A stretch of 64,000 nucleotides of DNA from an uncultured Parolsenella sp. (GTDB lineage Bacteria; Actinomycetota; Coriobacteriia; Coriobacteriales; Atopobiaceae): the NCBI RefSeq assembly GCF_934660935.1, contig NZ_CAKUIH010000005.1, forward strand, positions 107,848 to 171,847, written 5' to 3'. This document shows positions 1,928 through 26,270 of the stretch, one piece after another; position 1 is the stretch's first letter; every line of letters starts with the position of its first letter. The notes beneath the pieces are model-generated. The model saw only the letters and a list, made by a program, of their open reading frames with translations, was not told the DNA's origin and made no database searches. Position numbers and translations under genes: made by a program.

Positions 1928-1986
1928 ATGTGGGCAATTCCCTTCTCTTTGTCTCCGCGGGACATCGCGCGCGGCCATGTGTCGAG

Positions 1987-2032
1987 CCAAAATAAAACGG
2001 GCGAGACGAAGTCTGAACTTCATCTCGCCCGT
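1987..2032 (-). terminator. Rho-independent terminator (minus strand)
   Basis: acgggcgaga / tctcgcccgt form a 10-bp stem. On the minus strand it is followed by TTTTATTTTGG. Confidence 0.65.
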
Positions 2033-2152
2033 ATGCGTATGCATGGCTGCGACTACATCCTATGTTGCATGGGCAACCCTACCACGAAACGCCATCCCTT
2101 CGTAAGCGTTTAGTTTGTGGAGACTAACCCATGGAAAGGAAGTGCCCTTCTC

Positions 2153-2605: not shown

Positions 2606-2703
2606 CGTATGACCCTCCTATCGCACTGACATACGAGGCGCAAACCCCGCTCTTCTCTGCCGCACTTCTACCCGCATAGTTACGTTACTAAACAGATGAG
2701 ACC

Positions 2704-2744
2704 AAGCAGAAACGGGGTGGAACGGATTTCTCCGCCCCACCCCG
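2704..2744 (-). terminator. Terminator downstream of the PatB/MalY-like gene
   Basis: cggggtgg / ccaccccg form an 8-bp stem. On the minus strand it is followed by TTTCTGCTT. Confidence 0.5.
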
Positions 2745-2792
2745 CTGTCAGCTACTTAGTGCAGCTTGGCTTTAGTCGCTTGCACGTAAGAA

Positions 2793-3974: not shown

Positions 3975-4068
3975 GATTTGCTCCATTTCTTTCTGAGTTA
4001 GAACGGACTGCAAAACAACGCACTACTTGGATGGTAGCAGCGGTACGTCCAGTAAAACAAGGGAGGGC

Positions 4069-5436
4069 TTAGAAGAACAGGGTCCAGCCGTAGCCGATGA
4101 TGACGTTCAGCAGGAACATGGTGATGCAGGGGATCATGCAGCTCTTGGAGAGATCCTGCAGGTCGATGCCGCCCATACCAGCGGTAGCGATGATGACGCC
4201 GGCGACGGGGGACATGGAGCGGCCCATAGCGGTGGCGAGCTGCATCGGGACGGCGATGCTCTGGGTGGCCATGCCCATGGTGGTGGCCATATCCGGGACG
4301 AGCGGGCCGAAGGCGTACCAAGAGGCGTTGCCAGAGCCGAGGATGAAGGCACCGAAGAACGTGATGAAGGACATGCAGAGGACGACGATGATCGGGGCAC
4401 CGTTGGCCTCGGCGAGGAGGCCGGAGACGACCGTCAGGCCACCGAGGAGCTTGATGCCCTCAGCGAAGATGGCGGCGGCAGAGAGGATGGAGACGACGCG
4501 AGCGAAGGCGCCACCCATCTCCTTCATGACGAAGCCCATGTCGTCGGTGACGGCCTTGTCGCGCTTACGAACAAGCTCGATGAGGAAGACGATGAGCAGG
4601 CAGAGCAGGTTCGCGACAGCGACGTCCATCTTAATGGGGCTGAAGGCGAAGGCAATGATGATGACGAGCGGGGCAACCGGGAAGATGGAGTACCAAACCG
4701 GGCAGTCAGAATCCTTGACGGCCTCGTGCTGGAGACCCTCGACGCCCTCAGAAGCGGCGGCCTTCTTGTCGCAGCGGTTGAGCCACATGGGAAGAAGGAT
4801 GGCGGCGATGACGGACAGGATGACACCGACGGGGAGCTGCCACTGCATGAAGTAGTCAATCATCGGGATGCCGACGACCTTCTCAGCGGCGAAGATGGCG
4901 GAGGAGTCGTTGGGGCCCCAGTCAAGGAAGCTGCCCATGACGACGGCGGTGCACGCGGAGAGCGGGCTGATGCCGAGGGAGATCATGATCGGGAAGGCGA
5001 TGGACATAAGGAGCATCGCGTGGCCGGAAGCGCTGGGGATAACGAGCTTAAGAGCGCAGCCGATGAGGAACAGGAAGCTCAGAACGATGTAGGGGTTCTT
5101 GATGCCACCGAGGGGCTTGGTGGCGAGGAAGGCCAGCTTGGTGGAGGCACCGATGTGCGTCATGTACATCGCGTAGCCGGTGACCATCATAAGCGTGAGG
5201 CCGACGCCGCTCATGTTCTTGGAGAAGCAGTTCTTCGCGAACACGACGCAGTCGAGAATGATGTTACCGGTGGTGTCCTCACCGAGGACGGAGGTGCCGG
5301 TGAAGGCGGAATAGGCCATCAGAACGGCGATGCCGGACATCATGAAGATGAAGACGGAGTTGACCTTCTTCAGGACGCAGCGCACGACGAATGCGATGTA
5401 AATCAGCGTCAGAAGAACAGAGATTGCAGGACTCAT
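4069..5436 (-). CDS. DcuC-family anaerobic C4-dicarboxylate carrier
   Basis: 455 aa from ATG 5436 with RBS GAGGAAG. The protein is polytopic, with a sequence pattern typical of the DcuC family (MSPAISVLLTLIYIAFVV..., GNASWYAFGPLVPDMA). Confidence 0.8.
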   Translation of the reverse strand: MSPAISVLLTLIYIAFVVRCVLKKVNSVFIFMMSGIAVLMAYSAFTGTSVLGEDTTGNIILDCVVFAKNCFSKNMSGVGLTLMMVTGYAMYMTHIGASTKLAFLATKPLGGIKNPYIVLSFLFLIGCALKLVIPSASGHAMLLMSIAFPIMISLGISPLSACTAVVMGSFLDWGPNDSSAIFAAEKVVGIPMIDYFMQWQLPVGVILSVIAAILLPMWLNRCDKKAAASEGVEGLQHEAVKDSDCPVWYSIFPVAPLVIIIAFAFSPIKMDVAVANLLCLLIVFLIELVRKRDKAVTDDMGFVMKEMGGAFARVVSILSAAAIFAEGIKLLGGLTVVSGLLAEANGAPIIVVLCMSFITFFGAFILGSGNASWYAFGPLVPDMATTMGMATQSIAVPMQLATAMGRSMSPVAGVIIATAGMGGIDLQDLSKSCMIPCITMFLLNVIIGYGWTLFF

Positions 5437-6449: not shown

Positions 6450-9400
6450 CTAGTCCACGCTCTTGAGTGCTTCGAGCATGTCGACGCGGCGCAAATACTG
6501 GTTGACGACCGCATACATCGCCGCAACCACGAGCACGATGACGACCGTCGACACCACGAAGGGGAGCCATCCGCAAGCAGGATCGAACATCACGTTCTCC
6601 GGCGGCACGGCGGCGATGATGTACTGCTGCAGCATCCAACCGAGCAGCCAGCCAACCGGCAGCGCGAGACACGAGTTGATGATCGTCTCGCGATAGATGT
6701 ACATCGAGACTTCGCGTGGATAGAACCCGAGAACCTTGATCGTGGACAGCTCGCGGATGCGCTCGGCCACGTTGATGGTCACGAGGTTGTAGACGATCAC
6801 CACCGCCAGCAGCACCGCCACCACGATAAGCACGCCCATGATCATGTTGAGGGACTTCACCACGACGTTGATCTGGTCGATAAGCGCCGCACTCTGCACA
6901 CACCCCATCACGCCCGAAAGGCTCATGAAGCGCGCCGCCTCGGAGCGAATCGCCGTCGTGCCGTTATCCGTCAGGTTCACGACAAAGGCATTCGTCTCCA
7001 GGGGCTTGCCGAAGCAGTTCTGGTAGGCCTCCGCACTCATGAACATGAAGTGTTCCATGTACATCTCGCAGATGCCAGCCACACGCACGCCGCACTCGCG
7101 ACCGTCCGCGTCCTTGAACGTGAGAGTATCCCCTACGCGCAGGCCGATGAGGCTCGCGAGGCGCTCGGAAATCACAGCGCCGTCCGGAGACAGCTCGAGC
7201 GCCCTGCCGGTCGAGCGCTCGCGAATGCGCAGGTAACTAGCAAAAGCGCTCGCGTCCTCAGGGACAAGGAGATTGATCTTCTGGTCATCGCCCTTGGCGC
7301 CGCCCCGCTTGGTCACGCTTTCGTAGCGCACAGGCAGGTGGCTGGCGACGGCACCGGAGGCAAGCTCGGCATCTATCCCCACGCGCTCTTCCTCGCTCAC
7401 GTGGCTATTCTCGGCAACGATCAAGTCATAGCCGATGATGTCGCCAAACTGGGCGTCGGCAAGGCCGTTGATGGAGTTGCGAACGGCAAAGCCGCAGAAC
7501 ATGAGACATACGGCGCCCGCCACGCCAACGACGGTCATGAGCATGCGCTTCTTGTAGCGAAGGAGGTTTCTGCAGGTGACCTTCTGCGTAAAGTTAAGGC
7601 GATTCCACACCGGCGAAATGTGCTCGAGGATGATCTTCGAGCCGGCGGCCGGAGCCTTGGGGAGGAGGAGCTGGGCGGGTTTCTCCGCCAGGCTTCGCTT
7701 GGCCACCGCTGCCGCCGGGCCAACCGAGACGGCCAGGGCCAGCGCAAAGGCAGCCGCGCTCACCAGCGGGCGGAAGTGCATCTCGATGGGTGGTAGCACG
7801 AATTTCGAACCATAGGCGCTATAGACGATGAATGGCATCAGCGTATGACCGAGCGCGATGCCGACAAACGCGCCAATGCCTCCCGCCGTAGCCCCATAGA
7901 CCACAAACTTAAGCATGACGTCGCGGTCGCGATATCCCAAGGCCTTGAGGGTGCCGGAGTTCACGCGTTCCTCATCCACCATGCGAGTCATCGTGGTCGA
8001 TGCCACGAGTGCCGCCACCAGGTAGAGAAAGTAGGGAAAGACGTCCGCGAGAGAATCGACGATCTCGCTCACGCTGCTGTAGGTCTTATAGCCTTCTGAG
8101 CCCGGGGTTTCTCGACGCGAGTCGACAGCGTAAGCCGGTTGGTCGATGGAATCTCGCTGCTCGCGCGCATCGGCGAGGGAGGCCTCGCCATCGGCGATCT
8201 CCCGCTCGGCATCGGGCAAGGCGTCGTTGTACTCCGCGAGAGCAGACTCGTACTCGGAACGCTTTTGGGCAAGCGCGCCCGCCGCCTCGTCATACGCGGC
8301 GCGGCCCTGCTGATAGGCAGCAAACCCCTCGTTGTACTCGGCCATGCCGGCGTCATAGGTGGCCTTACCGGCGGCGTACTCAGCCTGGCTTGCGGATAGC
8401 CTCTCGGCACTTGCGCCAATCTGCGCGGAGACGGCATCGAGCTCCTGCTGCTTGGCGGCAAACTCCGCCTGACCGTTCGCGACTTGCTGGTCAAGAGCCA
8501 CCTGAGCCGCGGAAATCTGCTGCTCAGCGGCATCGAGCTGCGCTGATTGCTGGGCGTAGCTCGCATCATCGATGAGGCCAGCGGCGTGTGCCTGCTCGAG
8601 TTGGTCCCTCTTTTGCGCAACGTCCGCACGTTGGGCGTCAATCTGCGCTTGCGCCTGAGCCGTTTGCTGCTCCGCTGCCGTTTTGGCGTCATCGAGGGCT
8701 TGGACGGACGCCGCGTATTGGGAGCGCGCCTCGGCAAGCTGCCGCTCTCCTTCGTCTAGCTGGGCGCGGGCGTCTGCAAGGCGATCGCGGGAAGCGAAAA
8801 GCGTTTCGCGCGCACCCGCCAGCCGCGCGGCAGCCACCTCAAGCTGTGACCAAGTGTCATCGAGAGTCAGCTGTCCATCTGCGAGTCTCGCGGCAGCATC
8901 ATCTAGCGCTGCCTTGGCATCGGAGAGCTGCTGGCGAGCGTTGTCGAGAGTCGCCTGACCGTCAGCGATCTTGTCGTCGAACTCCGCGCGTACCGCAGCG
9001 AGACGGCGCGGCGGCGCACATGCGAGCACGGTGGCAAGTTCCTCCTTATGAGCCGCGACGCGCGCGAGGTACTCCGCGCTATACGGGTCGAGACCCTCGG
9101 TGTCATCAAACGTAAGGCGCGCAACCATGCGATAGTCCGCATTGAAGACGTCGGGCGTTACCACGGCATATCCCGTAAGGTCGCCCGTTCCCACCGTTGT
9201 CTTGCCCTTGTTCACGCTCGCGATGATCTCCGTCGAGCTCACGTGTCCCACAACGCGAAAATGCGTCTGCGTCAGCACCGCGCTGCCACCCATGCCGTCC
9301 TTTTCGACCAGGTCGACCATCGAACCGAGCGGAAAACGATCCACGAGGAAGGAGTCGACGGCTATTTCGTCAGGAGCCGAAGGCATGCGACCGCCAACAA

Positions 9401-9758
9401 TCTCAAACTGGCTTACGCGCTCAGGGACCGACTCGAGTCGAATGGAGTCATTGGTGTCCGCAATCGTAACGTCCTTGAGGTAGCCGAACTCGACCTCGCG
9501 AACGCCGGGAGTCGCTTTGATATCCGCCTGGTCATCGGCATCAAGGCCAAGGTCGCCAATAACGGTAACGTCTGCCATGTCGTAGCGGTCGAAGAATCGG
9601 GCGGAAGTCGCGCGCATATCCGGGCCCGCGACCTTGAGGCCCACGAGAGCGAAGGAGCCCAGGGCGATAAGGCAGACGATGGAGCAGAAGCGCCCCTTTG
9701 ACTTCTTGAACGTGGCGAGGACGTCACGCCAAAGCATGGTCTTCTTTACGCGTGCCAT
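6450..9758 (-). CDS. Large FtsX/MacB-type ABC transporter permease with a ~280-aa coiled-coil insertion in the first extracytoplasmic domain
   Basis: 1102 aa from ATG 9758 with RBS GGGAGAGGA. It has two FtsX-like 4-TM modules. An Ala/Gln/Asp-rich heptad-like region spans about aa 255-535 (nt ~8154-8996). Confidence 0.85.
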   Translation of the reverse strand: MARVKKTMLWRDVLATFKKSKGRFCSIVCLIALGSFALVGLKVAGPDMRATSARFFDRYDMADVTVIGDLGLDADDQADIKATPGVREVEFGYLKDVTIADTNDSIRLESVPERVSQFEIVGGRMPSAPDEIAVDSFLVDRFPLGSMVDLVEKDGMGGSAVLTQTHFRVVGHVSSTEIIASVNKGKTTVGTGDLTGYAVVTPDVFNADYRMVARLTFDDTEGLDPYSAEYLARVAAHKEELATVLACAPPRRLAAVRAEFDDKIADGQATLDNARQQLSDAKAALDDAAARLADGQLTLDDTWSQLEVAAARLAGARETLFASRDRLADARAQLDEGERQLAEARSQYAASVQALDDAKTAAEQQTAQAQAQIDAQRADVAQKRDQLEQAHAAGLIDDASYAQQSAQLDAAEQQISAAQVALDQQVANGQAEFAAKQQELDAVSAQIGASAERLSASQAEYAAGKATYDAGMAEYNEGFAAYQQGRAAYDEAAGALAQKRSEYESALAEYNDALPDAEREIADGEASLADAREQRDSIDQPAYAVDSRRETPGSEGYKTYSSVSEIVDSLADVFPYFLYLVAALVASTTMTRMVDEERVNSGTLKALGYRDRDVMLKFVVYGATAGGIGAFVGIALGHTLMPFIVYSAYGSKFVLPPIEMHFRPLVSAAAFALALAVSVGPAAAVAKRSLAEKPAQLLLPKAPAAGSKIILEHISPVWNRLNFTQKVTCRNLLRYKKRMLMTVVGVAGAVCLMFCGFAVRNSINGLADAQFGDIIGYDLIVAENSHVSEEERVGIDAELASGAVASHLPVRYESVTKRGGAKGDDQKINLLVPEDASAFASYLRIRERSTGRALELSPDGAVISERLASLIGLRVGDTLTFKDADGRECGVRVAGICEMYMEHFMFMSAEAYQNCFGKPLETNAFVVNLTDNGTTAIRSEAARFMSLSGVMGCVQSAALIDQINVVVKSLNMIMGVLIVVAVLLAVVIVYNLVTINVAERIRELSTIKVLGFYPREVSMYIYRETIINSCLALPVGWLLGWMLQQYIIAAVPPENVMFDPACGWLPFVVSTVVIVLVVAAMYAVVNQYLRRVDMLEALKSVD

Positions 9759-9804
9759 GACGTCCTCTCCCGTACCAGGTCCAGTCAAGCTCAGTTTCCT
9801 GGCC

Positions 9805-10575
9805 CTACTTTGCCAGCCAGCTCGCCATCGGACGGCAAATCTGGCGCGCATTGTTATATGCCATATCGAGCGTAAGACACGTTCGCGCAGAATAGAACCC
9901 GTCCTCACGGCAGATAGTCAATGCGAGCTCCGGCTGGCTGCCCGTAAGGCAAAGCGGCAAAAGCAGCTGGATACGACCGTTGTAATACTGCGGCACCGCA
10001 ATGGTGTAGTTCGCAGCCGCGCGGCGCTCGGCCTCCGCAACAGCGCCCTCAAAGGCCCGACGCAGCAAGCACTCGTTTCCCTTGCCACGAAGTTGCTCCG
10101 GGATGCGAGCCAAGTTGTTCTCATCGCCCAGAATATGATCGATATTCGGACGAACCCGCAGGTGGAAATCATAAATGAGGTCTGCGGGGTTATCGGTGTA
10201 ATGAACGCGAGCAGGAAGCACGTCAACCTCTGACAGCGCCAAGTCGCTCGACTTAAAGAAGCCCTTAAGGAACCATGGCTGGGCATCCGGGCGATTGTTG
10301 GGCTGGAACAATGCGTATATCGCCTCGAAGCGCGGCGTGAATAACCCCGTATTGAAACAGGCGAAATCGCCATCCAACACGATGAAGGACTTCCCTCTCC
10401 CCTCTTCATCGACGCGTTCCTGCAGGTACGCGGCACGACGGTACGTGAAGTCGATGTAGTTGAGCAATATCCTGTTATCCGGGCCCCAATCCTCGGGATC
10501 AGCCAGGTCTGCCAGGTATTGGTAGCAGGGATAAGGACAGAAGGCGAAGTCGACAATCCTGTCAGGGTAGACCAT
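9805..10575 (-). CDS. DUF3825 domain-containing protein
   Basis: 256 aa from ATG 10575 with RBS GGAGGA. The C-terminal pattern AVPQYYNGRIQLLLPLCL...TCLTLDMAYNNARQI...WL matches my recollection of DUF3825. Confidence 0.65.
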   Translation of the reverse strand: MVYPDRIVDFAFCPYPCYQYLADLADPEDWGPDNRILLNYIDFTYRRAAYLQERVDEEGRGKSFIVLDGDFACFNTGLFTPRFEAIYALFQPNNRPDAQPWFLKGFFKSSDLALSEVDVLPARVHYTDNPADLIYDFHLRVRPNIDHILGDENNLARIPEQLRGKGNECLLRRAFEGAVAEAERRAAANYTIAVPQYYNGRIQLLLPLCLTGSQPELALTICREDGFYSARTCLTLDMAYNNARQICRPMASWLAK

Positions 10576-10715: not shown

Positions 10716-11453
10716 ATGCCCGGCCTCGGTACCCTCATCAACGTCACCCTGATCACTATCGGCGGGCTCATCGGCCTCGCCGCCAGCTCGCTCGTCACGG
10801 AGCGCCTGCAAGACGCGCTTCTCCGCGCATGCGGCGCGTGCATCGTATTCGTTGGCATCGCAGGCACGCTCCAGCACATGCTCGTCGCCACCGTTGCGGA
10901 AGACGGAGCCGTTCTCCTCTCCACGACGGGCACGATGATGCTTGTCGTGTCGATGGCGCTCGGTACGGTCATCGGCGAGGTCATCGACATCGACGCTCGC
11001 TTCGATGACCTCGGAAAATGGCTGCGCGACCACACTGGCAGCTCCGGCGACCCCCGCTTCGTCGACGGCTTCGTCACCGCATCGCTCACCCTCTCGGTCG
11101 GCGCGATGGCCATTGTGGGTTCCATCCAAGACGGCCTTGCGGGCGATTGGTCCGCCCTCGCGCTCAAAGGTTCCATCGACGCGATCATCGTCTGCGCGAT
11201 GGCGGCGTCTATGGGCAAGGGCTGTATCTTCTCCGCGCTCTCGGTTGGCGTTTTCCAGGGACTCGTCACGGCGCTCGCCACACTCATCGCCCCGGTCCTG
11301 TCCGACGCGGCGCTCGCCAACCTCACCCTCGTAGGCTCAGTCCTCATCTTCTGCGTAGGGATCAACCTCATCTGGCCTCGTACCTTCAAGCCGGCAAACA
11401 TGCTGCCTGCCGTGGTCATCGCCGCCGTATGCGCGGGACTCCCCTGGTTCTAA
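10716..11453 (+). CDS. DUF554-family membrane protein
   Basis: ATG 10716 follows AAGGAG. The N-terminus MPGLGTLINVTLITIGGLIG and the GS.QDGL.GD motif are typical of DUF554. Confidence 0.75.
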   Translation: MPGLGTLINVTLITIGGLIGLAASSLVTERLQDALLRACGACIVFVGIAGTLQHMLVATVAEDGAVLLSTTGTMMLVVSMALGTVIGEVIDIDARFDDLGKWLRDHTGSSGDPRFVDGFVTASLTLSVGAMAIVGSIQDGLAGDWSALALKGSIDAIIVCAMAASMGKGCIFSALSVGVFQGLVTALATLIAPVLSDAALANLTLVGSVLIFCVGINLIWPRTFKPANMLPAVVIAAVCAGLPWF

Positions 11454-11585
11454 GCTCAAGCGGTCCAAAGCCCGGCTCCGGCCCGCAGCCTGGCTCCACC
11501 CGTGCTGCCCGGGAGAAGCAAGTCAAACAGATGTTCGCAATCAGTGCTATCATAGGCGTCCCTAAGGCTGGCTCGGGAGGGAGGC

Positions 11586-13385
11586 ATGATGCGATCTACC
11601 GCTCAAGAAGTGCTCGACATGCTCCTCCAGAGTCCCAGCCTCCGCCGCAGCGACTTCGTGGACCGCGTCTTCACGGATGAGCCTATCCTCATGCGCGGCT
11701 CCCAAATGGCCAGCTACATCCCCCCGCGCATACAGGAGATGCGCGAGATGGCGCTCTCGCCTGAGGGTCGTGGGATGATTGGCGCCCAGCTCTTCACCAA
11801 GCAAGCGCTCTTTATGGAGGATTACGAGGACGACGTCGAATATCACGGCTCGTTCGAGCGCTATTTCCCCACTTACGTGGATATGAATGATCGCCAGCTC
11901 AGAGGCTATTTCTCATGGAGAAGCGCCGTCCGTCGCGGAGAGGAGACCCCTAAGGCGCCCCTCTCCTTTGCGTTCGTTCACCTCTATGAGCTAATCGGCA
12001 GCATTGGCATCGAACTCGAGCCCATCGGGCGCAGCCGCGAAGGCCTCACTAGGGCTGAGCAGGGTTTCCTTGCCATCGAGCATTTCTGGAAGACTCACGA
12101 GGACACCTACCCCGAGCTGCAACGTTACGTGACGCGTTGGCTCCGCGATTACGCGGTCTGGCATGGGCTTGACGCGTCCTACCTCGCTCCGTACGTAAAT
12201 ACCGCCTTTGACGAAGCACTCGTCAGCCTCACGGAGTCCCTCGGCTCTTGGATGGCGGCGACGCCCCAGAAAAAGCCTCGCAAACAAGATGCACGGGCAA
12301 TGGCTCTCGCTGGCGCAGACAGGCCGGAGGAGGAGCGGTTCTTCGCCGCACTCGACCCGCTGTCAACCTACCGGCCACGCGTAAGCCGCCTCTATCGCGA
12401 CCGTCCGAAGACGCTCCGCCATGTGACCTGCTCCGTTATCGCTGAGCTTGCCCTCTATTACGAGAAGCACCGCAAATCCGGCCTTGTCGAAGATCTTTTC
12501 GGCAGCTCGCAGGCCTTCCCCTACGTCATGTTCATGAACGCCGTCTTCTGGACGGGTAGCCCCCACGAAGACACGATCTACGAGATAAGCCCATGTAATC
12601 GCTACGGTTGCGCCAAGGGGCGCTGGTATCACGAGGGATTCCTGACCACCGCCAGACGCAGCTCCAAGCTCGGAGCCATTCTCCGCCTGATCGACCAGCG
12701 TCTGCGCGTCGCGATTGGCTATCCCCATCCGCTCACCAAGAAGGACGCACCGAAGTACCTCGACAAGATCGTGGCGGAGCAGATTGAGGCCCGCCTCGCC
12801 TGGGAGGCGGACCGCGAGGCAAGGGCCGTTCGGGTCGACCTCTCCCAGCTCGCCGGCATTCGCGTCGCGGCAAACGCCACGTGCGATTCGCTCCTCATCG
12901 ATGAAGAGCGAGAGGATGAGGCTGTGTCGGACGCGGGAGAGGCGATGTCGGCCGCGGCAGTGGCGCCCACGCTGCGGATCAAAACGCTCGAAGCCATGGC
13001 ACCTGAAGTCCCGGCAGGCGCAGCTGTGCCGGAGACTGAAAAGCCTACCGCCCGAACGGGAGAGTTCGCCGACGAGGGCCCAACGACTGGCCGCCCTTCG
13101 GCGGAGCGAGCCATAGCACCCGCTGAAGCGTCTTCCGCGGAAACAGCGCCGGCGCCCTACGGCCTCACTGCCATTGAGCTCGAGCTTCTTCAGTCACTTC
13201 TCGATGGCACCCCATGGGAGGTTCCCACAGGCACATCGCTCGACATGCTCGTGGACTCCATCAACGAGAAGCTCTTCGACTTGCTTGGAGATACCGCGCT
13301 TGAGTTCGACGGTTTAGTGTCCGGCATGCCCACTATCATCGACGACTACGCAGAAGACGTGAGGGAGGCCCTCTCCTATGAGTGA
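11586..13385 (+). CDS. TerB-N / TerB-C domain protein (Shango SngA-like)
   Basis: RBS GGGAGGGAGG precedes ATG 11586. An N-terminal region carries LRGYFSWRSAVRRGE (TerB-N-like). The C-terminal region LTAIELELLQSLLDG...INEKLFDLLGDT is TerB-C-like. Its stop overlaps the next start (ATGAGTGA, 13378-13385). Confidence 0.75.
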   Translation: MMRSTAQEVLDMLLQSPSLRRSDFVDRVFTDEPILMRGSQMASYIPPRIQEMREMALSPEGRGMIGAQLFTKQALFMEDYEDDVEYHGSFERYFPTYVDMNDRQLRGYFSWRSAVRRGEETPKAPLSFAFVHLYELIGSIGIELEPIGRSREGLTRAEQGFLAIEHFWKTHEDTYPELQRYVTRWLRDYAVWHGLDASYLAPYVNTAFDEALVSLTESLGSWMAATPQKKPRKQDARAMALAGADRPEEERFFAALDPLSTYRPRVSRLYRDRPKTLRHVTCSVIAELALYYEKHRKSGLVEDLFGSSQAFPYVMFMNAVFWTGSPHEDTIYEISPCNRYGCAKGRWYHEGFLTTARRSSKLGAILRLIDQRLRVAIGYPHPLTKKDAPKYLDKIVAEQIEARLAWEADREARAVRVDLSQLAGIRVAANATCDSLLIDEEREDEAVSDAGEAMSAAAVAPTLRIKTLEAMAPEVPAGAAVPETEKPTARTGEFADEGPTTGRPSAERAIAPAEASSAETAPAPYGLTAIELELLQSLLDGTPWEVPTGTSLDMLVDSINEKLFDLLGDTALEFDGLVSGMPTIIDDYAEDVREALSYE

Positions 13386-14856
13386 GAACACAAGTCAGAT
13401 GGCGCTATCCGCTGATGCGCCCGCCACCAAGCCACGCGTGCCCAAGCGCATCGCTGCCGTCATCATCAACTCGCTCAAGGGTGGCGTGGTGCCGCGCATC
13501 GGCCTGCCCTACGTAACGGTCGGCCGCGAGACTGAAATTCGCGCCCTCCTCCATGACCTCGACCTTATCGCCAACGGCGGCGCCAGCTTCCGCTTCCTCG
13601 TAGGTCGCTACGGCGCGGGCAAGAGCTTCCTGCTCCAGACGATCCGCACGCACGCGATGGGCAAGGGCTTCGTCGTTGCGGACGCAGACCTCTCGCCAGA
13701 GCGTCGCCTCCAAGGCACCGCCGGGCAGGGCCTCGCCACCTACCGCGAGCTCATTCGCAACCTCTCGACCAAGACGCGTCCGGAGGGCGGCGCGCTCCAG
13801 CTCGTGCTCGATCGCTGGGTCGCCACCATTGATGCCTCCCCCGCCGGCGCAGAGGCAGCCCTCGCCGCAGCATGCGCTCCGCTCGAGGAGATGGTCCACG
13901 GGTTCGACTTCGCCCGCATCCTGCGAGCCTACCACGAGGCCAGCATCCAGGGGGATGACGAGCGCCGCGCCGCCGTCCTCAGGTGGCTCCGTGGCGAGTA
14001 CCGCACCAAGACCGAGGCCCGTGGCGAGCTCGGCATCTCCTGCTGCATCGGCGATGACGACTGGTATGACTACCTCAAGCTCCTCGCGCAGTTCCTCGTG
14101 GGCGCCGGCTATCAGGGCATGCTCGTCCTCATCGATGAGCTGGTGAACCTCTACAAGATCCCAAACGCCATCACCCGCCAGTACAACTACGAGAAGATCC
14201 TCACGATGTACAACGACACGCTCCAGGGCAAGGCGCACCACCTGGGCATCATCATGGGCGGCACTCCGCAATCAATCGAGGACCGCCGCCGCGGAGTCTA
14301 CTCGTACGAAGCCCTGCGCTCGCGCTTGGCAGAGGGCCGCTTCGCGCGCGAGGGCATGTATGACATGCTCGCGCCCGTTATCAAGCTGAATCCCCTCACC
14401 TATGAGGAGCTTCTCGTCCTGACGGAGAAACTCTCGGACATTCATGCGGGCTACTTTGGGTATGAGCGCACGCTTGGCACGGAGGACCTCGTCAGGTTCC
14501 TCCAGCTCGAGTACGGGCGCGTCGGCGCGGATACCCATCTCACCCCGCGCGAGGTCATCCGCGACTTCGTCGAGCTTCTCGACATCCTCCACCAGAACCC
14601 CGGTACCACGATCGAGAGCATTCTCGCGGGCGACGGGTCCGGCGTGGGCGATACGCCGAGTGGTGCCAGCGCACTGGTCGCCACCACGTCGGCAGCCGGC
14701 AACACGGCGGACGCGGCAGCGCGGAACGGGGGCGTGACGCTCGCGGGTGCTGCGCCGTCGGGCTCGGCAGCCGCTGGCACGGCCTCCACCATCGCGGGCG
14801 CGAGCCGTCCCGCCGAAGGCACATCCAGCAGAGACTTCTCCGGGTTCAAGCTCTGA
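13378..14856 (+). CDS. DUF2791 / BrxD-like P-loop ATPase (Shango-type ATPase)
   Basis: Walker A is VGRYGAGKSFLL and Walker B is MLVLIDELV. The N-terminal SLKGGVVPRIGLPYVTVGRE motif is typical of BrxD/DUF2791. The stop TGA 14854-14856 overlaps the helicase ATG 14856. Confidence 0.8.
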   Translation: MSENTSQMALSADAPATKPRVPKRIAAVIINSLKGGVVPRIGLPYVTVGRETEIRALLHDLDLIANGGASFRFLVGRYGAGKSFLLQTIRTHAMGKGFVVADADLSPERRLQGTAGQGLATYRELIRNLSTKTRPEGGALQLVLDRWVATIDASPAGAEAALAAACAPLEEMVHGFDFARILRAYHEASIQGDDERRAAVLRWLRGEYRTKTEARGELGISCCIGDDDWYDYLKLLAQFLVGAGYQGMLVLIDELVNLYKIPNAITRQYNYEKILTMYNDTLQGKAHHLGIIMGGTPQSIEDRRRGVYSYEALRSRLAEGRFAREGMYDMLAPVIKLNPLTYEELLVLTEKLSDIHAGYFGYERTLGTEDLVRFLQLEYGRVGADTHLTPREVIRDFVELLDILHQNPGTTIESILAGDGSGVGDTPSGASALVATTSAAGNTADAAARNGGVTLAGAAPSGSAAAGTASTIAGASRPAEGTSSRDFSGFKL

Positions 14857-17429
14857 TGGACACCTTCTCTCGCTATGCGCCCTTCATCCAGGACTTCATC
14901 TATGACCATGAGTGGGAGAACCTCCGTGGCATCCAGGTGGCCGCTGCCGAGGCGATCTTCAACACGGATGACAACGTCCTGCTCACCGCGTCGACCGCGT
15001 CCGGCAAGACGGAGGCAGCGTTCTTCCCCATCCTCACGCTCTTCGACGAGAACCCTCCCGCGAGCGTGGGCGCCATATACATCGGCCCCCTCAAGGCCCT
15101 CATCAATGATCAGTTCCTCCGCCTGGAGGAACTCTGCAACGAGGAGCACATCCCCGTCTGGCGTTGGCACGGGGACGTCTCCTCGAGCCACAAGGCCAAG
15201 CTCCTCAAGAAGCCGAGTGGCATCCTCCAAATCACGCCAGAGTCACTCGAGGCGCTTCTACTCCATAAGCACTCGGCCATCCCGCATCTGTTCAGCGACC
15301 TTCGCTTCGTCGTAATCGACGAGGTCCACTCGCTTCTGCGCGGAGACCGTGGCGGCCAAACGATTTCGCTCATCGAACGCCTCGGTCGCATCGCAGGCGT
15401 CAACCCGCGCCGCATCGGACTTTCTGCCACGATCGGCGACCCAGACGCCGTTGGCGCATTCCTCTCCGCGGACACGGGCCGCGGGTGGGTGGTTCCGCGC
15501 GTTCAGGAGCCCGAGCGCGTATGGAATCTCTCGATGGAGCACTTCTACCTTGATGGAGAGCAGGCGGGAGACGCCTCGCTCGCCGAGGCGCTGCGCTCGC
15601 TTCGCGATTTCGACGCCTCGAGAAGGGCAGCAGACGCTCGCAAGGCGTCAAGCAGTAGCGCCGGACCCGCAAGCAACGCCGGCTCCGCAAGCAACAGCAC
15701 CGGCCTCGCAAGCAACGCCTGCACTGACTCCAAAAACGAGAGCGGCATCGAGGCCACAAACGAAGACGGCGGCCGCGCGTCTGGCCCCGCTGTCGCCTCA
15801 AGAGACGACGAAACCTCCCTCGCCGCCCCATCCCCCATCGAGCCCGATGAGATCGACGACGACTTCTTCATCTGTCCCACGCTCGACGTCGCCACGGACA
15901 CTGCCCCCAAGGAGGCCGACCCCGGACTCGGTTATGTCTTCGAGCACTCACGCAACAAGAAATGCCTGCTCTTCGCCAACTCCCGTGAGGACGCGGAAGC
16001 CTACTGCACGGAGCTCCGTCGTTACTGCGAGCTCGTGCACGAGCCGGATCGCTTCCTGATCCACCACGGCAACCTCTCGAGCTCAATTCGCGAGTCCGCG
16101 GAGGATCTCATGCGCGACGAGACGCAGTGCATGACCACGGTCACCACGGCAACTCTCGAGCTCGGCATCGACATCGGCCGTCTCGAGCGCGCCTTCCAGA
16201 TCGACGCCCCCTTCACGGTGAGCGCGTTTCTCCAGCGCATGGGCCGTACCGGCCGCCGGGAGCGCCCTCCCGAGATGTGGTTCGTCATGCGCGAGGATCA
16301 CCCTGACGTCAGGGCTCTCCTCCCGGAGACCATCCCGTGGAAACTCCTCCAGGGCATCGCCCTCGTCCAACTCTACCTCGAGGAGCGCTGGGTCGAGCCG
16401 CCTCGCCTCGACCGCCTCCCCTACAGCCTCCTGCTTCACCAGACGCTCGCCACGCTCGCCAGCGAGGGCGAACTCTCCGCGAGCGAGCTTGCGGGCAGGG
16501 TGCTCAACCTCACCGTGTTCAGGCGCGTGAGTCCGGATGACTTCAAGGTCCTGCTCCGCCATCTCCTCGAGACGGACTACCTCGAGCTCACGGAGGCGGG
16601 AGCGCTCATCGTCGGCCTGGCCGGAGAACGCGTCGTCAACTCGTACAAGTTCTACGGCGTCTTTCAGGAGAACATCGAGTACACCGTCCGCAGCGACTCA
16701 GCAGATCTTGGCACGCTCGTCGCGCCGCCGCCCCCGGGCGGCAAGGTCGCCATCGCCGGCGCCACCTGGATGGTCGACGAGGTCGATCACAAGCGTCTCG
16801 TCGTCTACGTCACAAAGATCAAGGGCCGCGTGCCCGCCTATTTTGGCGAGTGCGCCGGCGACATCCACACGCACGTGCTCGAGCGCATGCGTCGCGTCCT
16901 TGAGGAGCGCTGCAACTATCCGTTCCTCATGCGCAACGCAACGGTACGTCTCGCCGTCGCGCGCCGCGCAGCCGCCGGCGCGGACATAGATCGCTCGCCC
17001 CTCATCAACCTGGGGGAGGACACGTGGGCACTCTTCCCCTGGCTTGGAAGCTACGCGTTCCTCGCCCTCGAGCGCCTCATCAAGCACAAGTGCGCAAAAC
17101 AGCTCGGCATCAAGGGCCTTGACCCGACTCGCCCCTACTACCTGCAGTTCCACATGAGCGCGGGCCCCGGCGAGTTCTTCCGAACCCTCATCGACGAGGC
17201 GAACAAGCCCTTCGACCCCCTCGACCTCCTCGGCCCGACGGAGGTCCCGGTTTTCGAGAAGTACGACAGCCTGCTCCCACCCGAGCTCGTACGAAAGGGC
17301 TTTGCGGAGGGCGTCCTCGACGTCCAAGGCATGAGAAGCCGCGTCAACGAATGGGAGCCCTACGCCACGAGCGCGGAGCTTCCGTCAGGCGGTGGGGTCC
17401 CCGGCGTCGATTTCCCTTGGTTCAGCTAG
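14856..17429 (+). CDS. Lhr-like DEAD/DEAH-box SF2 helicase (Shango-type helicase, BrxHII-like)
   Basis: Helicase motifs are I ASTASGKTEAA, II VVIDEVHS, III LSATIGD and VI QRMGRTGRR. A low-complexity Ser/Ala/Asn/Asp-rich insertion of about 110 aa lies between the two RecA lobes (nt ~15558-15891). Confidence 0.85.
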   Translation: MDTFSRYAPFIQDFIYDHEWENLRGIQVAAAEAIFNTDDNVLLTASTASGKTEAAFFPILTLFDENPPASVGAIYIGPLKALINDQFLRLEELCNEEHIPVWRWHGDVSSSHKAKLLKKPSGILQITPESLEALLLHKHSAIPHLFSDLRFVVIDEVHSLLRGDRGGQTISLIERLGRIAGVNPRRIGLSATIGDPDAVGAFLSADTGRGWVVPRVQEPERVWNLSMEHFYLDGEQAGDASLAEALRSLRDFDASRRAADARKASSSSAGPASNAGSASNSTGLASNACTDSKNESGIEATNEDGGRASGPAVASRDDETSLAAPSPIEPDEIDDDFFICPTLDVATDTAPKEADPGLGYVFEHSRNKKCLLFANSREDAEAYCTELRRYCELVHEPDRFLIHHGNLSSSIRESAEDLMRDETQCMTTVTTATLELGIDIGRLERAFQIDAPFTVSAFLQRMGRTGRRERPPEMWFVMREDHPDVRALLPETIPWKLLQGIALVQLYLEERWVEPPRLDRLPYSLLLHQTLATLASEGELSASELAGRVLNLTVFRRVSPDDFKVLLRHLLETDYLELTEAGALIVGLAGERVVNSYKFYGVFQENIEYTVRSDSADLGTLVAPPPPGGKVAIAGATWMVDEVDHKRLVVYVTKIKGRVPAYFGECAGDIHTHVLERMRRVLEERCNYPFLMRNATVRLAVARRAAAGADIDRSPLINLGEDTWALFPWLGSYAFLALERLIKHKCAKQLGIKGLDPTRPYYLQFHMSAGPGEFFRTLIDEANKPFDPLDLLGPTEVPVFEKYDSLLPPELVRKGFAEGVLDVQGMRSRVNEWEPYATSAELPSGGGVPGVDFPWFS

Positions 17430-17478
17430 GAGTCGAAACATCCAGGCGCAAGCCCAACATCAGACGGGACGGGTCCCG

Positions 17479-18321
17479 CTAGTCGTACATCGGCTCGCCG
17501 AGGAACTCCTCGTCGAAGGGGATCGCATCCGGGGCTGGCCAGTTGGCATCAGTCGCAACGAGCAGGTAGTTGTCCTCCACCGCAAAGGGGTCGTCCTCGC
17601 AGGGTATCACGTGCACATGGGCGAATACCTCGGCAAACGATGAGGCGATGTCTCGGAGGAACTCGATGTCCGCACCCGCCTCCGCGGAGACGACGTTTGC
17701 GAGCGCCAAGCCATCCGACACAAGGTTGGCACGCACCGCCCGTGCGGCTTCGACGGTCGCAAGTGCGCGCACGGGTTCGGAGCCGTCGAACGCGTCAAGC
17801 ACGACCGCGCCATACGGCTCGCTCCCAGAGGCGGCACCGTCCTCGAGGAAGGCTCGCCCGTCGCCCGTGATGAGGCGGCAGCGACCCGGATGGGCGGACA
17901 TCGCCTCGTCGAGGAAGAACCAACGGCGTGCGACCTCGGTCACGGACGCGTCGATCTCAACCACGTCGAGCGAAACATCATCGCGCGTCGCGAGCACGTG
18001 CTTGGGCCACGCGTAGCCACCGCCGCCGATCATGAGGACGTGACGCGTGTCGGGGCGCAGCGTGAAGGCGTGGTCAAAGGCGCGGTAGTAGGAAAACACG
18101 GGTTCCATGCGACGCTCGTCGAGGTAGGTGGCGCTTTGGTAGACGCCTCCTATCTGCAGCACCCGCACGGACTCGCCATCGTGGTCGCGGACCTGGCGCA
18201 CGAAGCCCCACCCACTCGAGAGGCGAACGGGGCGCGGCAGCCACGAGGGCCAACGGCCCTCGGCGCCGGGCCCGCCCACACCCGGCGCGCGGCGACAGGC
18301 GTCTGTCGAGCGCTCCTTCAT
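17479..18321 (-). CDS. Spermidine-synthase-like class I methyltransferase-fold protein
   Basis: 280 aa from ATG 18321. Motifs are VLMIGGGGYAWPKH, VVEIDASV and VVLDAFDG. The start lies 1 nt after the stop of the upstream MFS gene. Confidence 0.75.
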   Translation of the reverse strand: MKERSTDACRRAPGVGGPGAEGRWPSWLPRPVRLSSGWGFVRQVRDHDGESVRVLQIGGVYQSATYLDERRMEPVFSYYRAFDHAFTLRPDTRHVLMIGGGGYAWPKHVLATRDDVSLDVVEIDASVTEVARRWFFLDEAMSAHPGRCRLITGDGRAFLEDGAASGSEPYGAVVLDAFDGSEPVRALATVEAARAVRANLVSDGLALANVVSAEAGADIEFLRDIASSFAEVFAHVHVIPCEDDPFAVEDNYLLVATDANWPAPDAIPFDEEFLGEPMYD

Positions 18322-18322
18322 G

Positions 18323-19543
18323 CTAGGCTTCCGCCCTCGAACGGCGCTCGAGCGGAATGGTGACCAGCACGAGCCCGAGCGCCACCAGCGCGAACACGGC
18401 GCCCACGGCGCCAACGTTCGCAAGCCCGAGGTTGCTCACGATGACTCCGCCAACCGCCGTGCCAAATGCGATGCCGATATTGAACGCCGTCGCCTCGAGC
18501 GAGCTCGCGAGCGTAAGCGCCTTGGGGTGCTTGCGTATTGCCGTATTCATGAACATCGAGATGCAGGGCACGGACGCAATGTACATGAGCAGCGATATCG
18601 CCATGACACACGCAAGGCCCAGCGACTGCGAGGGACCCGCGAGCCAGAGCGTGAACAGCACGACGGAAAGCATGGGGAAGGTCACGCACAGCGCTCGAAT
18701 TCCAAAGCGAGAGTCAACCCAGCCGGAAAGCAGGTTCGACGCAAACGTGCCCGCGCCATACGCCATCAGCGTGGCGCTCGCGGCAAGCGGAGACATCCCG
18801 AGGACCGTCTCGAGATAAGGCGTGACATACCCGTAGAGCACGTAAATCGAGCCCACACCAAAGACAAAGATGGCGATACCCGTCATGACCTGCGGCTCGA
18901 AGAGGAGGCGCACCTGCTCGCCGGCAGTCGCGGGCTCGTCCGTGGCACCCTCGCGCGGAAGCAATGCGACGAGAGCGACACACGTCACGAGGGCGAGCGC
19001 AAGCGCGGCCCACATGATGATGCGCCAGTCGGAGAGAGCGGCCAGGGCCTTGCCGACGGAGGTTGCGACAACCATCGCCACGGAGAACGCAGCGTAAACC
19101 ACGCTGATCATCGCGGACGTCCGCTTCGGGTCGACGAGCTCGGGGATGAACGTGATGCCCACGCCCAAAAACGTTCCAGAGACGGCACCGATAAGCACGC
19201 GACTCGCGAGGAGAATGTCAAACGTCGGGGCAAGCGACTGAACGAGATTGGCGACGCAGAACACCGCCGAGTAGGCAACGACGAGATGAAAGCGCTTGAA
19301 GCGGCCCGTCGCAAGGGTGAGCAGCGGGGTCAAGAACGCATACGTCATCGCAAAAAAGCTGATAAGCTGGCCCGCCTCCGCAAGCGTCACGCCATAGGCG
19401 TCGGCAATCTCCTGCTCGACGCCTATGACGGCGAACTCAGAGCAACCCAAAGAGAAGCCGAGGACGACGAGCAGGGCCACGCAGATACGGCGACGTGCAG
19501 GCGACAGCGCGGAAGCCCCCGCCGTCTTGGTCATCTCTTCCAC
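18323..19543 (-). CDS. MFS transporter (12-TM efflux-type)
   Basis: The 406-aa ORF is polytopic. The start is either GTG 19543 or ATG 19534, and GGAGAG lies upstream. Confidence 0.85.
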   Translation of the reverse strand: MEEMTKTAGASALSPARRRICVALLVVLGFSLGCSEFAVIGVEQEIADAYGVTLAEAGQLISFFAMTYAFLTPLLTLATGRFKRFHLVVAYSAVFCVANLVQSLAPTFDILLASRVLIGAVSGTFLGVGITFIPELVDPKRTSAMISVVYAAFSVAMVVATSVGKALAALSDWRIIMWAALALALVTCVALVALLPREGATDEPATAGEQVRLLFEPQVMTGIAIFVFGVGSIYVLYGYVTPYLETVLGMSPLAASATLMAYGAGTFASNLLSGWVDSRFGIRALCVTFPMLSVVLFTLWLAGPSQSLGLACVMAISLLMYIASVPCISMFMNTAIRKHPKALTLASSLEATAFNIGIAFGTAVGGVIVSNLGLANVGAVGAVFALVALGLVLVTIPLERRSRAEA

Positions 19544-24131: not shown

Positions 24132-25140
24132 ACTTCTTGCGGCAGAGAAGCACGTTGCGCCCGGGGACGAGCCGATATGCGACGTCATGGTGCCAGGTCT
24201 TCGTGGCCAGCTTGACCACCTCGTGCGCGAAGCGCCTGAACTCGCCCTCGTCACCCGAGGGCAGGCGCATCTCGACGGAAGAGGCGCCGCGTGCTCGCCG
24301 CAGGATCGTCCTCGCCCCGCCCATGTCCCACGCATCAAGGTCAAAGGCGTCGTAGTAGCCCGCCGAGACATCGCACGCGGAGCTAAAGCCAACGCCTGCG
24401 GCGAGGTGGGTTGGCGCGGCCTCGGCATCGGACAGGCCGAGATAGGCATGGCTGCAAGTCCAGCCGTCGCGCTCCGCGTCCCAGTAGGTGTCCGCATGCA
24501 CCCAGCGAGGCGGCGCGCCCCTCTCGACGGACACGTCGACGAGGTTCCAGGCATGGCTGGTCTCGCCATCGCGACCGCGCCTCGGGGGCCGGTCTCCGCC
24601 CGTAGCCCACCCGCTCACGACGGCGCACGGCACATGCGCCGCGTCACACAGCAGCTTGAACGCGCGGGCATAACCCGTGCAGACGGCCCCGGTGTGCCCG
24701 CGGCCAAGCGCGCCGACCGCGTTTCGCAGGTCGGTACCGCCTTCGATGCCAGCGCCAAGGCTGAGCAGCCCGTCATGGATGGCGGCGACGCGCGCCAGCC
24801 CCACAGGAAGCGCAGAAGCCGCCTCGAGGATCGGGTCGGCGCTGCGGGCTATCGCGTCGAGCTCCGAGCGCGCCTCGGCCTCGTCGCGCAGGTAGGAGAA
24901 GGACATCCTCGTTACCCCCTGCGACCCGCGCTCAACCGTCGTCGCGGACGAATTCGCCCAGATGATACGCGGGTTGTCGTGCATCACCAGACGGAACACC
25001 TCGAACGCGGCGGTGTGGTCGAGGCCGCCGGGAAGCGTCGCCTCGCGCGAGAAGGTGGCAAGCGCGTCGAGGATCTCCTCGTAGTAGGCACGCGAGACCG
25101 GCCCCAAGGTCGAGCGATGTAGCTGCGCGACCATCCTCAT
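24130..25140 (-). CDS. Transglutaminase-like cysteine protease-fold protein
   Basis: 336 aa from ATG 25140. The candidate Cys-His-Asp triad is GAVCTGYARAFKLLCD, TSHAWNLVDV and HADTYWD. The start overlaps the stop of the upstream kinase gene (ATGA at 25137-25140). Confidence 0.8.
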   Translation of the reverse strand: MRMVAQLHRSTLGPVSRAYYEEILDALATFSREATLPGGLDHTAAFEVFRLVMHDNPRIIWANSSATTVERGSQGVTRMSFSYLRDEAEARSELDAIARSADPILEAASALPVGLARVAAIHDGLLSLGAGIEGGTDLRNAVGALGRGHTGAVCTGYARAFKLLCDAAHVPCAVVSGWATGGDRPPRRGRDGETSHAWNLVDVSVERGAPPRWVHADTYWDAERDGWTCSHAYLGLSDAEAAPTHLAAGVGFSSACDVSAGYYDAFDLDAWDMGGARTILRRARGASSVEMRLPSGDEGEFRRFAHEVVKLATKTWHHDVAYRLVPGRNVLLCRKK

Positions 25141-26210: not shown

Positions 26211-26270
26211 TCCTTCCTTCGGACGGAGCGGGCGACGGCACCGCGCCGGGCCGAATCAAACAAACACCTG

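Follow-up and report, generated by a model that had tools for sequence, protein, structure and literature searches.

A complete Shango triad behind a conserved LexA-like operator in Parolsenella and related Coriobacteriia

Introduction

Shango, a triad of a TerB-like protein, an ATPase and a helicase, acts against phages in Escherichia coli (preprint of Millman et al. 2022) and protects Pseudomonas aeruginosa PA14 (cDHS1; Johnson et al. 2023, PMC10250203). Although this phenotype is proven, the trigger, the effector and the regulation of Shango are not known, and its TerB-type protein was called mechanistically unclear in the literature of late 2025. Here we describe a sngA-sngB-sngC locus in a 64,000-nucleotide (nt) stretch of DNA from an uncultured Parolsenella sp., one of the human-gut Coriobacteriia. 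The whole stretch is called the window, and positions follow its numbering. A preliminary description of this DNA had stated that the same kind of triad was reportedly validated as an anti-phage system in proteobacterial hosts, and the literature agrees for both of the species named above.

Several other systems share components or names with this triad. Type 2 BREX (Pgl) includes a homologous ATPase (BrxD, PF10923) and a helicase of the same clade (BrxHI), and a published helicase phylogeny groups SngC with BrxHI, DruE and DpdJ (PMC12278908). The repair helicases Lhr and MrfA/YprA are the best solved relatives of the SngC core. Mycobacterial lhr is induced by DNA damage, and sngC likewise appears to be linked to the damage response. 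Bunzi, Dionysus and the tellurite-resistance Ter cluster have in common with Shango the TerB-family naming and a published idea that links TerB to phage defence.

The Parolsenella locus resembles described Shango systems in that the same three families occur in the same order and direction, with an overlap of sngA and sngB and with full-length top matches to the Sng models. It differs in its host, an anaerobic actinobacterium of the gut (class Coriobacteriia), and in its setting, which is chromosomal, syntenic across genera and outside any defence hotspot or mobile element. SngB and SngC are 35-44% identical to their homologues on a proteobacterial plasmid, whose SngA is barely alignable with the one described here, and all three Parolsenella proteins carry large low-complexity linkers. 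A further difference is a conserved LexA-type box, which we have not found reported for Shango in the literature examined. In contrast to type 2 BREX, the locus has a TerB-N/TerB-C protein in place of the PglX methyltransferase, PglZ phosphatase and PglW kinase, whose genes are found neither within 10 kb on either side nor elsewhere in the window. Unlike Lhr and MrfA/YprA, which it resembles only in the RecA1/RecA2 core, SngC is obligately linked to SngA and SngB. SngA differs from the proteins of Bunzi, Dionysus and the Ter cluster in lacking a PF05099 domain, a transmembrane helix and a pore-forming partner.

A complete Shango triad

The locus consists of the following features, for which lengths and domain limits are given in amino acids (aa).

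11586-13385, plus strand: sngA, 599 aa; helical core that includes TerB_N (aa ~40-445), then a disordered linker rich in Ala, Pro and Glu (446-520), then TerB_C (aa ~525-599).
13378-14856, plus strand: sngB, 492 aa; BrxD/DUF2791-type P-loop ATPase with a low-complexity C-terminal tail (aa ~417-492).
14856-17429, plus strand: sngC, 857 aa; superfamily 2 (SF2) DExH helicase with a core like those of Lhr and MrfA.
13378-13385, plus strand: sngA/sngB overlap of 8 nt (ATGAGTGA), with the ribosome-binding site GAGGGAGG ahead of it; the junction reads tcctATGAGTGAgaac.
14854-14858, plus strand: sngB/sngC overlap of 1 nt (TGATG); the junction reads gctcTGATGgac.

For each of the three proteins, the top PADLOC match is its Sng model. 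SngA is matched at 3.1e-66 (223 bits), with aa 43-594 aligned to positions 65-525 of the 528 in the model. The matches of SngB and SngC also have near-complete coverage, at 1.6e-178 (592 bits, vs 164 bits and 1.9e-48 for BrxD) and 1.4e-262 (872 bits, vs 379 bits for BrxHI), respectively. Pfam places TerB_N (3.6e-20, aa 61-200) and TerB_C (2.4e-11, aa 407-593) in SngA, covers the whole of SngB with BrxC_BrxD/DUF2791 (PF10923, 2.2e-157), and detects DEAD (2.9e-27) and Helicase_C (1.7e-15) in SngC. The Walker A motif GAGKS (within GRYGAGKSF) and the Walker B motif LVLIDE (within MLVLIDELV) of SngB are intact, as are helicase motifs I, II, III and VI of SngC (SGKT, DEVH, SAT and QRMGRTGRR). Among NCBIfam families, SngC is best matched by a ligase-associated DNA-damage-response DEXH helicase.

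These results bear out most of what the preliminary description had read from the letters, namely three co-directional genes that overlap at both junctions, TerB-N-like and TerB-C-like regions in the first protein, a BrxD/DUF2791-type ATPase with GAGKS and LVLIDE as the second, and an SF2 helicase with GKT, DEVH, SAT and QRMGRTGRR as the third. The Shango identity, for which a PADLOC comparison had been suggested, is upheld by Sng matches to all three proteins. Its proposal of translational coupling stands in part. Both overlaps are present in the window and the sngA/sngB overlap recurs as 4-8 nt in relatives, but in relatives sngB and sngC are often 12-590 nt apart or even split by unrelated genes, so tight coupling of sngC to sngB is not a conserved property of Shango.

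As judged from its sequence, the locus is a complete chromosomal Shango system with the canonical sngA-sngB-sngC triad. The system itself is of an already known type, and what is added here is a conserved LexA-type operator and inheritance across the class.

A conserved operator-promoter module upstream of sngA

The gene upstream of sngA encodes a DUF554 membrane protein, and the 132-nt gap between the two genes holds two elements.

11524-11537, no strand assigned: LexA/SOS-box-like operator, CAAACAGATGTTCG (reverse complement CGAACATCTGTTTG), with the core CGAACAnnTGTTTG in reverse orientation.
11545-11553, plus strand: extended -10 element, TGCTATCAT, 7 nt downstream of the box.

At the -35/spacer position of the promoter, the box forms a 14-bp imperfect palindrome with one mismatch to CGAACNNNNGTTCG. 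The window contains two matches to CGAACNNNNGTTCG with at most one mismatch vs 3.9 expected by chance, a count that alone is not significant, and the box is the sole intergenic match among the 31 with at most two mismatches. Across related loci, to which we refer by L numbers, CGAACAnnTGTTTG lies in either orientation no more than 300 nt upstream of sngA in 77 of 94. We sampled 1.73 Mb of such DNA, which takes in some 10 kb to either side of each Shango locus, and it contains 84 occurrences of this core. About 79 are upstream of sngA (two of them in the same intergenic region at loci where start detection failed) and five lie elsewhere, including two ahead of sngB.

Conservation of the box extends to loci with little other upstream similarity. 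The full box is present in 18 of 28 mutually dissimilar upstream regions, over which its half-sites CGAACA and CAAACA are the two commonest 6-mers, ahead of the ribosome-binding site. Among 35 distinct site contexts the core is invariant, occurs in both orientations and has unrelated flanks; position 13 is always T, so that CGAAC is paired asymmetrically with CAAAC and a perfect LexA palindrome never occurs. A layout of box, 5-7 nt and TGnTAnnnT is found in every lineage inspected (L006, L020, L025, L027-L029, L031, L039, L040, L053, L058, L061, L063, L072 and L091). In the 'Olsenella uli MC1' lineage (L025; also L037), where sngA and sngB are 145 nt apart, a second box and extended -10 element stand at 11979-12011 (CAAACAATTGTTCG-ttctta-TGGTATGAT), and the operator-promoter module is thus used twice in one system.

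A scan for consensus sigma-70 promoters and terminators and an Rfam search around the block found nothing. The box plus -10 element was also sought in viral contigs, where the 48 matches are about the number expected by chance according to a rough estimate, and one of them has a guanine-plus-cytosine (G+C) content above 0.56. The sngABC operon has its own promoter region, and the operator-promoter module is conserved across many Coriobacteriia lineages whose flanks are otherwise unrelated.

A different arrangement is seen upstream of sngA in Olsenella-type loci, where a tandem pair of ~30-nt repeats (ACGTG...TTTCTGCGC / TTTTGCAG) is followed by TATGAT (L011, ~10950-11100; L012; L018 and L038, ~960-1060; L049, ~590-680). 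These repeats may be another operator.

Resemblance of the box to LexA operators

The LexA boxes of Mycobacterium tuberculosis include TCGAACACATGTTTGA at lexA, TCGAACAGGTGTTCGG at recA and TCGAACAATTGTTCGA at dnaE2 (PMC2724278), and the consensus in this species has been given as TCGAAC(N4)GTTCGA (PMC3381160). In Streptomyces venezuelae the LexA consensus is tCGAAC-N4-GNNCGa, and parE is among the LexA targets (PMC9380542). The Shango core CGAACAnnTGTTTG equals the core of the M. tuberculosis lexA box and is one base off the recA and dnaE2 boxes. The box is also like experimentally defined actinobacterial LexA operators in overlapping the promoter, as a repressor site should. It differs from them in that it is a predicted site and has as its target an operon of defence type in place of a repair gene.

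We lean, with slightly more than even confidence, towards the prediction that the palindrome is a LexA operator and that the operon is LexA-controlled and DNA-damage-inducible, because the conserved operator matches actinobacterial LexA boxes.

Shango loci on plasmids and in other hosts

The triad is found as a unit in many phyla, and more than 90 related loci, together with plasmids, share the order sngA-sngB-sngC. Plasmids of Clostridium, Paenibacillus, Mesorhizobium and Klebsiella carry annotated copies, and the copies of Clostridium, Mesorhizobium and Klebsiella adjoin relaxases, Tn3 or insertion sequence (IS) elements, or VapBC. SngA of the Clostridium plasmid aligns end to end with Coriobacteriia SngA at 24% identity. 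A Coriobacteriia SngA profile, which is too narrow for this purpose, detected nothing in the SngA of the Mesorhizobium plasmid.

The Shango locus on the plasmid of Paenibacillus cellulositrophicus carries TTGAAA-ccggCGAACGTGCGTTC-TATAAT, in which a Bacillus-type LexA box (CGAACGTGCGTTCT) is placed between a perfect -35 and a perfect -10 element. Among the plasmid hosts examined, this is the one with a clear LexA box, so SOS control, as predicted from such boxes, is not a general property of Shango.

Two further loci have features of their own. The Paenibacillus peoriae plasmid (L116) encodes a much longer SngA (1052 aa, 1505-4663) and has, two genes downstream of the helicase, a phospholipase-D-like gene (8909-9490) that is a candidate nuclease effector and is absent from the window's system. 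In a Shango-like locus of Nonomuraea gerenzanensis (L114, NZ_LT559118.1), within an 11.85-Mb record named 'plasmid I' that is evidently a chromosome, a perfect palindrome (AAGGAACtgagGTTCCTT) precedes the sngA open reading frame by ~70 nt, and its status as a LexA box is ambiguous.

Features of the three proteins

In a confident AlphaFold2 model of SngA, built with 54 homologues (pLDDT 80), a mainly helical core is followed by a disordered linker (aa 446-520) and by a small domain at the C-terminus. Comparison of this model with the PDB by Foldseek gave nothing below E = 0.1, and the sequences of SngA and SngB had no match in the PDB, so structural comparison offered no hint of the mechanism. 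SngA has no recognisable catalytic domain and is the fastest-evolving member of the triad, in which no nuclease or other effector domain is recognisable. At E <= 0.01, Pfam finds TerB_N and TerB_C in SngA and not the TerB domain (PF05099), and it detects a helix-turn-helix domain in none of the three proteins. No transmembrane segment is predicted in any of them (maximum hydropathy of SngA, 1.39). Because PF05099 and such segments are missing, the idea of 'membrane surveillance' by TerB-type proteins finds no direct support in the SngA sequence.

SngB is the product of the most conserved gene of the cluster, with a mean pairwise distance of 0.19. The closest solved relatives of SngC, by single sequence and by profile, are Lhr (5v9x/7lhl) and YprA/MrfA (6znp), with profile values of 6.6e-39 and 4.6e-35. 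This likeness is confined to the RecA1/RecA2 core, and the C-terminal half of ~370 aa has no sequence match. Between the two RecA domains, SngC has a lineage-specific low-complexity insert of ~100 aa (aa ~243-346), which is the longest among ten aligned homologues. An 18-nt imperfect tandem repeat (15659-15719) underlies this linker, and an imperfect tandem repeat with a 21-nt period (12918-12965) underlies the low-complexity linker of SngA.

Neighbourhood and inheritance in Coriobacteriia

The triad is flanked by the following genes.

6450-9908, minus strand: FtsX/MacB-type permease, unusually large at about 1100 aa.
9805-10575, minus strand: DUF3825 gene, upstream and beside DUF554 in close relatives of the window; no PADLOC match.
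10716-11453, plus strand: DUF554 polytopic membrane protein (Pfam 3.9e-62) with ~8 hydrophobic segments; no PADLOC match.
17479-18321, minus strand: spermidine-synthase-like gene, NCBIfam NF037959 'fused MFS/spermidine synthase' (72 bits vs a cut-off of 40); no PADLOC match.
18323-19543, minus strand: downstream MFS transporter gene, probably paired with the spermidine-synthase-like gene.
Beyond the MFS gene, minus strand: flavodiiron gene of the downstream flank.

The DUF554 and spermidine-synthase-like flanks are those named in the preliminary description, which had also recognised a single defence system here; apart from generic kinase-domain matches, no other defence system was recognised among the genes scanned in the window. 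The picture that it implied, of an islet variably present and recently acquired, does not fit what we found. The conservation described below corresponds to one half of a refuting condition that it had named, namely conservation throughout the family together with a housekeeping phenotype. The G+C content of the block is 0.64-0.66 vs 0.648 for the window, the remainder of which holds housekeeping genes. Integrase and transposase genes are absent within 10 kb of the block, and the sole tRNA gene of the window is 18 kb away. Near-identity DNA searches of the block against plasmids and phages gave no match and hence no sign of a recent mobile origin.

When we scanned one genome per species from DUF554 as the seed, SngABC adjoined DUF554 in 16 of the 21 loci obtained (all of G+C 0.60-0.69) and in a 17th lay 26 kb off on the same contig. 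More than 523 relatives came from a metagenome scan with SngB as the seed. We examined the 80 best, which derive mostly from the human gut, and most of these have the order of the window, that is DUF554(+), SngA, SngB, SngC(+) and spermidine-synthase-like(-). The window is contained in a 101-kb scaffold from a human-gut metagenome (ENA ERZ28616738), and its near-identical relatives carry the labels Collinsella sp., uncultured Coriobacteriaceae or uncultured Parolsenella sp. The triad and the same neighbours recur across Collinsella, Parolsenella, Olsenella, Enorma and Atopobium, which represent two families, and all five genes occur together in 45 loci. No empty site between DUF554 and the spermidine-synthase-like gene was seen where both hold the window-type arrangement.

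Divergence of the Sng genes is in step with that of their flanks. Relative to close relatives, synonymous divergence is 0.07-0.24 for the Sng genes and 0.03-0.21 for the flanks, and the ratio of nonsynonymous to synonymous divergence is 0.06-0.18 for SngB and SngC and 0.23-0.35 for SngA; purifying selection acts on all three sng genes. The five genes also have correlated distance matrices (Spearman 0.36-0.70). Amino acid identity to the window protein across genera is as follows.

SngB: 75-81%.
SngC: 60-79%.
DUF554: 55-70%.
Spermidine-synthase-like: 42-65%.
SngA: 37-50%.

The arrangement of the cluster varies among lineages. In Olsenella-type loci the order spermidine-synthase-like(-), DUF554(+), SngABC is a circular permutation of that in the window, and in L025 the triad and the spermidine-synthase-like gene occupy a different neighbourhood. 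DUF554 is inverted in L006, a remnant in L022 and absent in L025, L029 and L039-L042, and the spermidine-synthase-like gene is absent in L020, L029, L043 and L056. Some loci have SngA and SngB with no SngC in the downstream sequence sampled, up to ~10 kb (L031 and L032, where sngB is followed by purL; L091; L109; L112). Unrelated genes stand between intact sngB and sngC in L066, L081 and L090 (~11.4-16.3 kb), L018 (4051-5682), L049 (3574-5038) and L043 (12163-13686). Encoded there are an Fe-only hydrogenase together with an ABC transporter, a permease for amino acids, DUF5104 together with a PIN toxin, and a beta-helix protein. In our reading, Shango in Coriobacteriia is an old and stably inherited resident that has undergone lineage-specific decay and rearrangement.

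Other observations concern these neighbourhoods. The circular permutation (L010-L017, compared with 10716-18321 of the window) is what tandem duplication followed by differential loss, or excision and re-integration of a circular intermediate, would produce. Loci with SngA and SngB only keep the box or a variant with two mismatches, and the pair may use a helicase encoded elsewhere or may be decaying. In L028 (7101-7862) and L036 the DUF3825 gene sits between DUF554 and sngA. Several loci come from bins labelled Prevotella, Acutalibacteraceae, Oscillospiraceae, Oscillibacter, Bacteroidaceae and Paludibacteraceae (L005, L006, L009, L010, L014 and L019); with a G+C content of 0.61-0.65 and genes of Coriobacteriia type, they look like bin contamination.

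Elsewhere in the window, the PADLOC comparison of scanned genes, immediate neighbours included, returned only generic kinase similarity besides Shango. A kinase cluster (25137-34820) contains a PP2C phosphatase (26271-27602, minus strand), a vWA gene (27672-28568, minus strand) and a Ser/Thr kinase (28687-29784, minus strand), beyond which are two large genes with no Pfam match on record (29942-31549, plus strand; 31635-34820, minus strand). PD-T4-6 (kinase-type) models match the Ser/Thr kinase (8e-22) and, more weakly, the N-terminus of the 1061-aa protein of this cluster (5.5e-11), probably through generic kinase similarity. A weak match of a central stretch of the FtsX/MacB-type permease (aa ~310-590) to coiled-coil JetC/MukB-like PADLOC models is probably compositional.

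Proposed mechanism

The explanation that we consider best, and regard as probable with moderate confidence, is that the locus is an intact, LexA-repressed Shango system whose SngABC proteins interfere with the replication of phages or mobile elements. LexA would repress sngABC in undamaged cells, and RecA-stimulated cleavage of LexA would induce the operon upon DNA damage, prophage induction or replication stress provoked by a phage. The BrxD-like ATPase SngB and the Lhr/MrfA-like helicase SngC may form an ATP-driven complex, in which SngC, if it behaves like Lhr and MrfA, would move along single-stranded nucleic acid in the 3'-5' direction. Such a complex might act on replication or recombination intermediates of invading DNA, with the soluble and fast-evolving SngA as a possible specificity, adaptor or scaffold subunit. 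The outcome would be a block to phage or mobile-element replication, as in proteobacterial Shango.

More broadly, our confidence is evenly balanced on whether Coriobacteriia Shango is a long-resident and largely vertically inherited nucleic-acid-processing module that is directly repressed by LexA and armed by DNA damage. In one version of this proposal, an SOS signal arising from prophage induction or phage-induced replication stress would license Shango as an immune system. In the other, Shango would be a defence system in the course of co-option into DNA repair.

Several points weigh against an immune system under SOS control. The anti-phage function is transferred from proteobacterial homologues at the low identities given above, and complex formation, helicase polarity and the role of SngA are matters that we only infer. 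It is unusual for a defence system to be syntenic across a class and to lie outside mobile elements and defence islands, and this setting fits a repair role too. Olsenella-type lineages, which make up 10 of the 28 representatives, have the other tandem repeats instead of the box, and no LexA box was found at the Shango loci of the Clostridium, P. peoriae and Klebsiella plasmids. A tblastn search with approximate E. coli LexA and RecA queries gave no match in the DNA around the sampled Shango loci, so no lexA or recA locus of Coriobacteriia was recovered in which the box might mark the SOS regulon. In E. coli, moreover, expression of defence systems correlates negatively with that of recA (bioRxiv 10.64898/2025.12.14.694197).

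Alternative explanations

The main rival is that the locus is a domesticated DNA-repair module, a vertically inherited and SOS-induced helicase-ATPase that serves the cell's own damage tolerance, like Lhr or MrfAB, and is not primarily anti-phage. Such a module would account for synteny in at least five genera and two families, for host-like composition away from mobile elements and defence islands, for synonymous divergence equal to that of the flanks with strong purifying selection on SngB and SngC, for a SngB more conserved across genera than the neighbouring DUF554 protein, and for a LexA-type box in the promoter. Among characterised helicases, the DNA-repair enzymes Lhr and YprA/MrfA are the nearest, the best NCBIfam match is of the damage-response kind, and housekeeping genes have been inserted between sngB and sngC in several lineages with loss of neither. 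However, all tested family members are anti-phage, and the same clade is found on plasmids beside IS elements, relaxases and toxin-antitoxin genes. SngA, moreover, evolves ~2-fold faster than its partners and diverges widely across genera, as expected of an arms-race sensor. The system is also not universal, as illustrated by a DUF554 locus without Shango (L005), by loci with SngA and SngB only (L031 and L091) and by some loci that have lost the box. On balance, we judge a primary repair role to be rather unlikely.

It is also possible, although we think it unlikely, that the palindrome is the operator of another regulator, either a winged-helix component of Shango that regulates its own operon or some other global repressor, with no coupling to damage. 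Nearly all of the occurrences in the sampled DNA are at Shango promoters, with one upstream of another gene, which is GyrB/ParE-like (L091). The invariant T at position 13 means that the perfect LexA palindrome is never present, and the sampled DNA includes no lexA or recA promoter from these organisms. However, few SOS genes are to be expected so close to Shango loci, the asymmetric sequence CGAACAcaTGTTTG is that of the M. tuberculosis lexA box itself, and the parE target in S. venezuelae gives the single GyrB/ParE-like site a counterpart in a known LexA regulon. The box of the P. cellulositrophicus plasmid follows the LexA dialect of its host, as expected of a host factor and not of one encoded by the system, and Pfam finds no helix-turn-helix in the Sng proteins.

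We consider it improbable that the Coriobacteriia variant of Shango is a larger unit to which DUF554, the spermidine-synthase-like protein or both contribute as a membrane anchor or effector. Such a unit would be in keeping with the 45 loci that have all five genes and with the correlation of the five distance matrices. The spermidine-synthase-like gene adjoins the triad in three contexts, with S-D-A-B-C and D-A-B-C-S (S for this gene, D for DUF554) as circular permutations, and published ideas tie TerB-type proteins to the membrane. Against this, DUF554 is a remnant, inverted or absent and the spermidine-synthase-like gene is absent in several lineages, the predicted sngA operator and promoter lie downstream of DUF554, and plasmid-borne Shango, that of Paenibacillus included, is without both neighbours. 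The spermidine-synthase-like protein belongs, moreover, to the 'fused MFS/spermidine synthase' family and is encoded beside an MFS gene, and neither neighbour matches PADLOC models. DUF554, DUF3825 and the spermidine-synthase-like gene are rejected as obligate parts, being without PADLOC matches and dispensable in several lineages, and the DUF554 and spermidine-synthase-like neighbours are probably linked to the triad by ancestry, not function.

The reading of the locus as a type 2 BREX/Pgl remnant (BrxD plus BrxHI) that gained a TerB-like gene, prompted by the second-best PADLOC matches to BrxD and BrxHI and by the Pfam name BrxC_BrxD, is effectively refuted, with Sng models that score 3.6-fold (SngB) and 2.3-fold (SngC) above the Brx models, an NCBIfam BrxD score of 164 bits far under its cut-off of 350, no PglX, PglZ or PglW genes in the window and a triad that recurs as a unit in many phyla.

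Significance

If the operator proves not to be LexA-dependent, the finding amounts to the correct annotation of a known system. Collinsella and its relatives, human gut bacteria that are abundant but have received little study, gain a locus for defence or repair. The locus also offers a natural comparative series of lineages with the box, without the box, with SngA and SngB only, and with split operons. The locus is also a test case for 'defence' helicase-ATPase modules that are shared with DNA repair or recruited into it. For a system whose trigger has been obscure, a conserved operator provides one that can be tested, namely DNA damage and the cleavage of LexA. If LexA control is true, it would give Shango its first defined regulatory input and tie the TerB-N/BrxD/Lhr-like machine to the SOS response.

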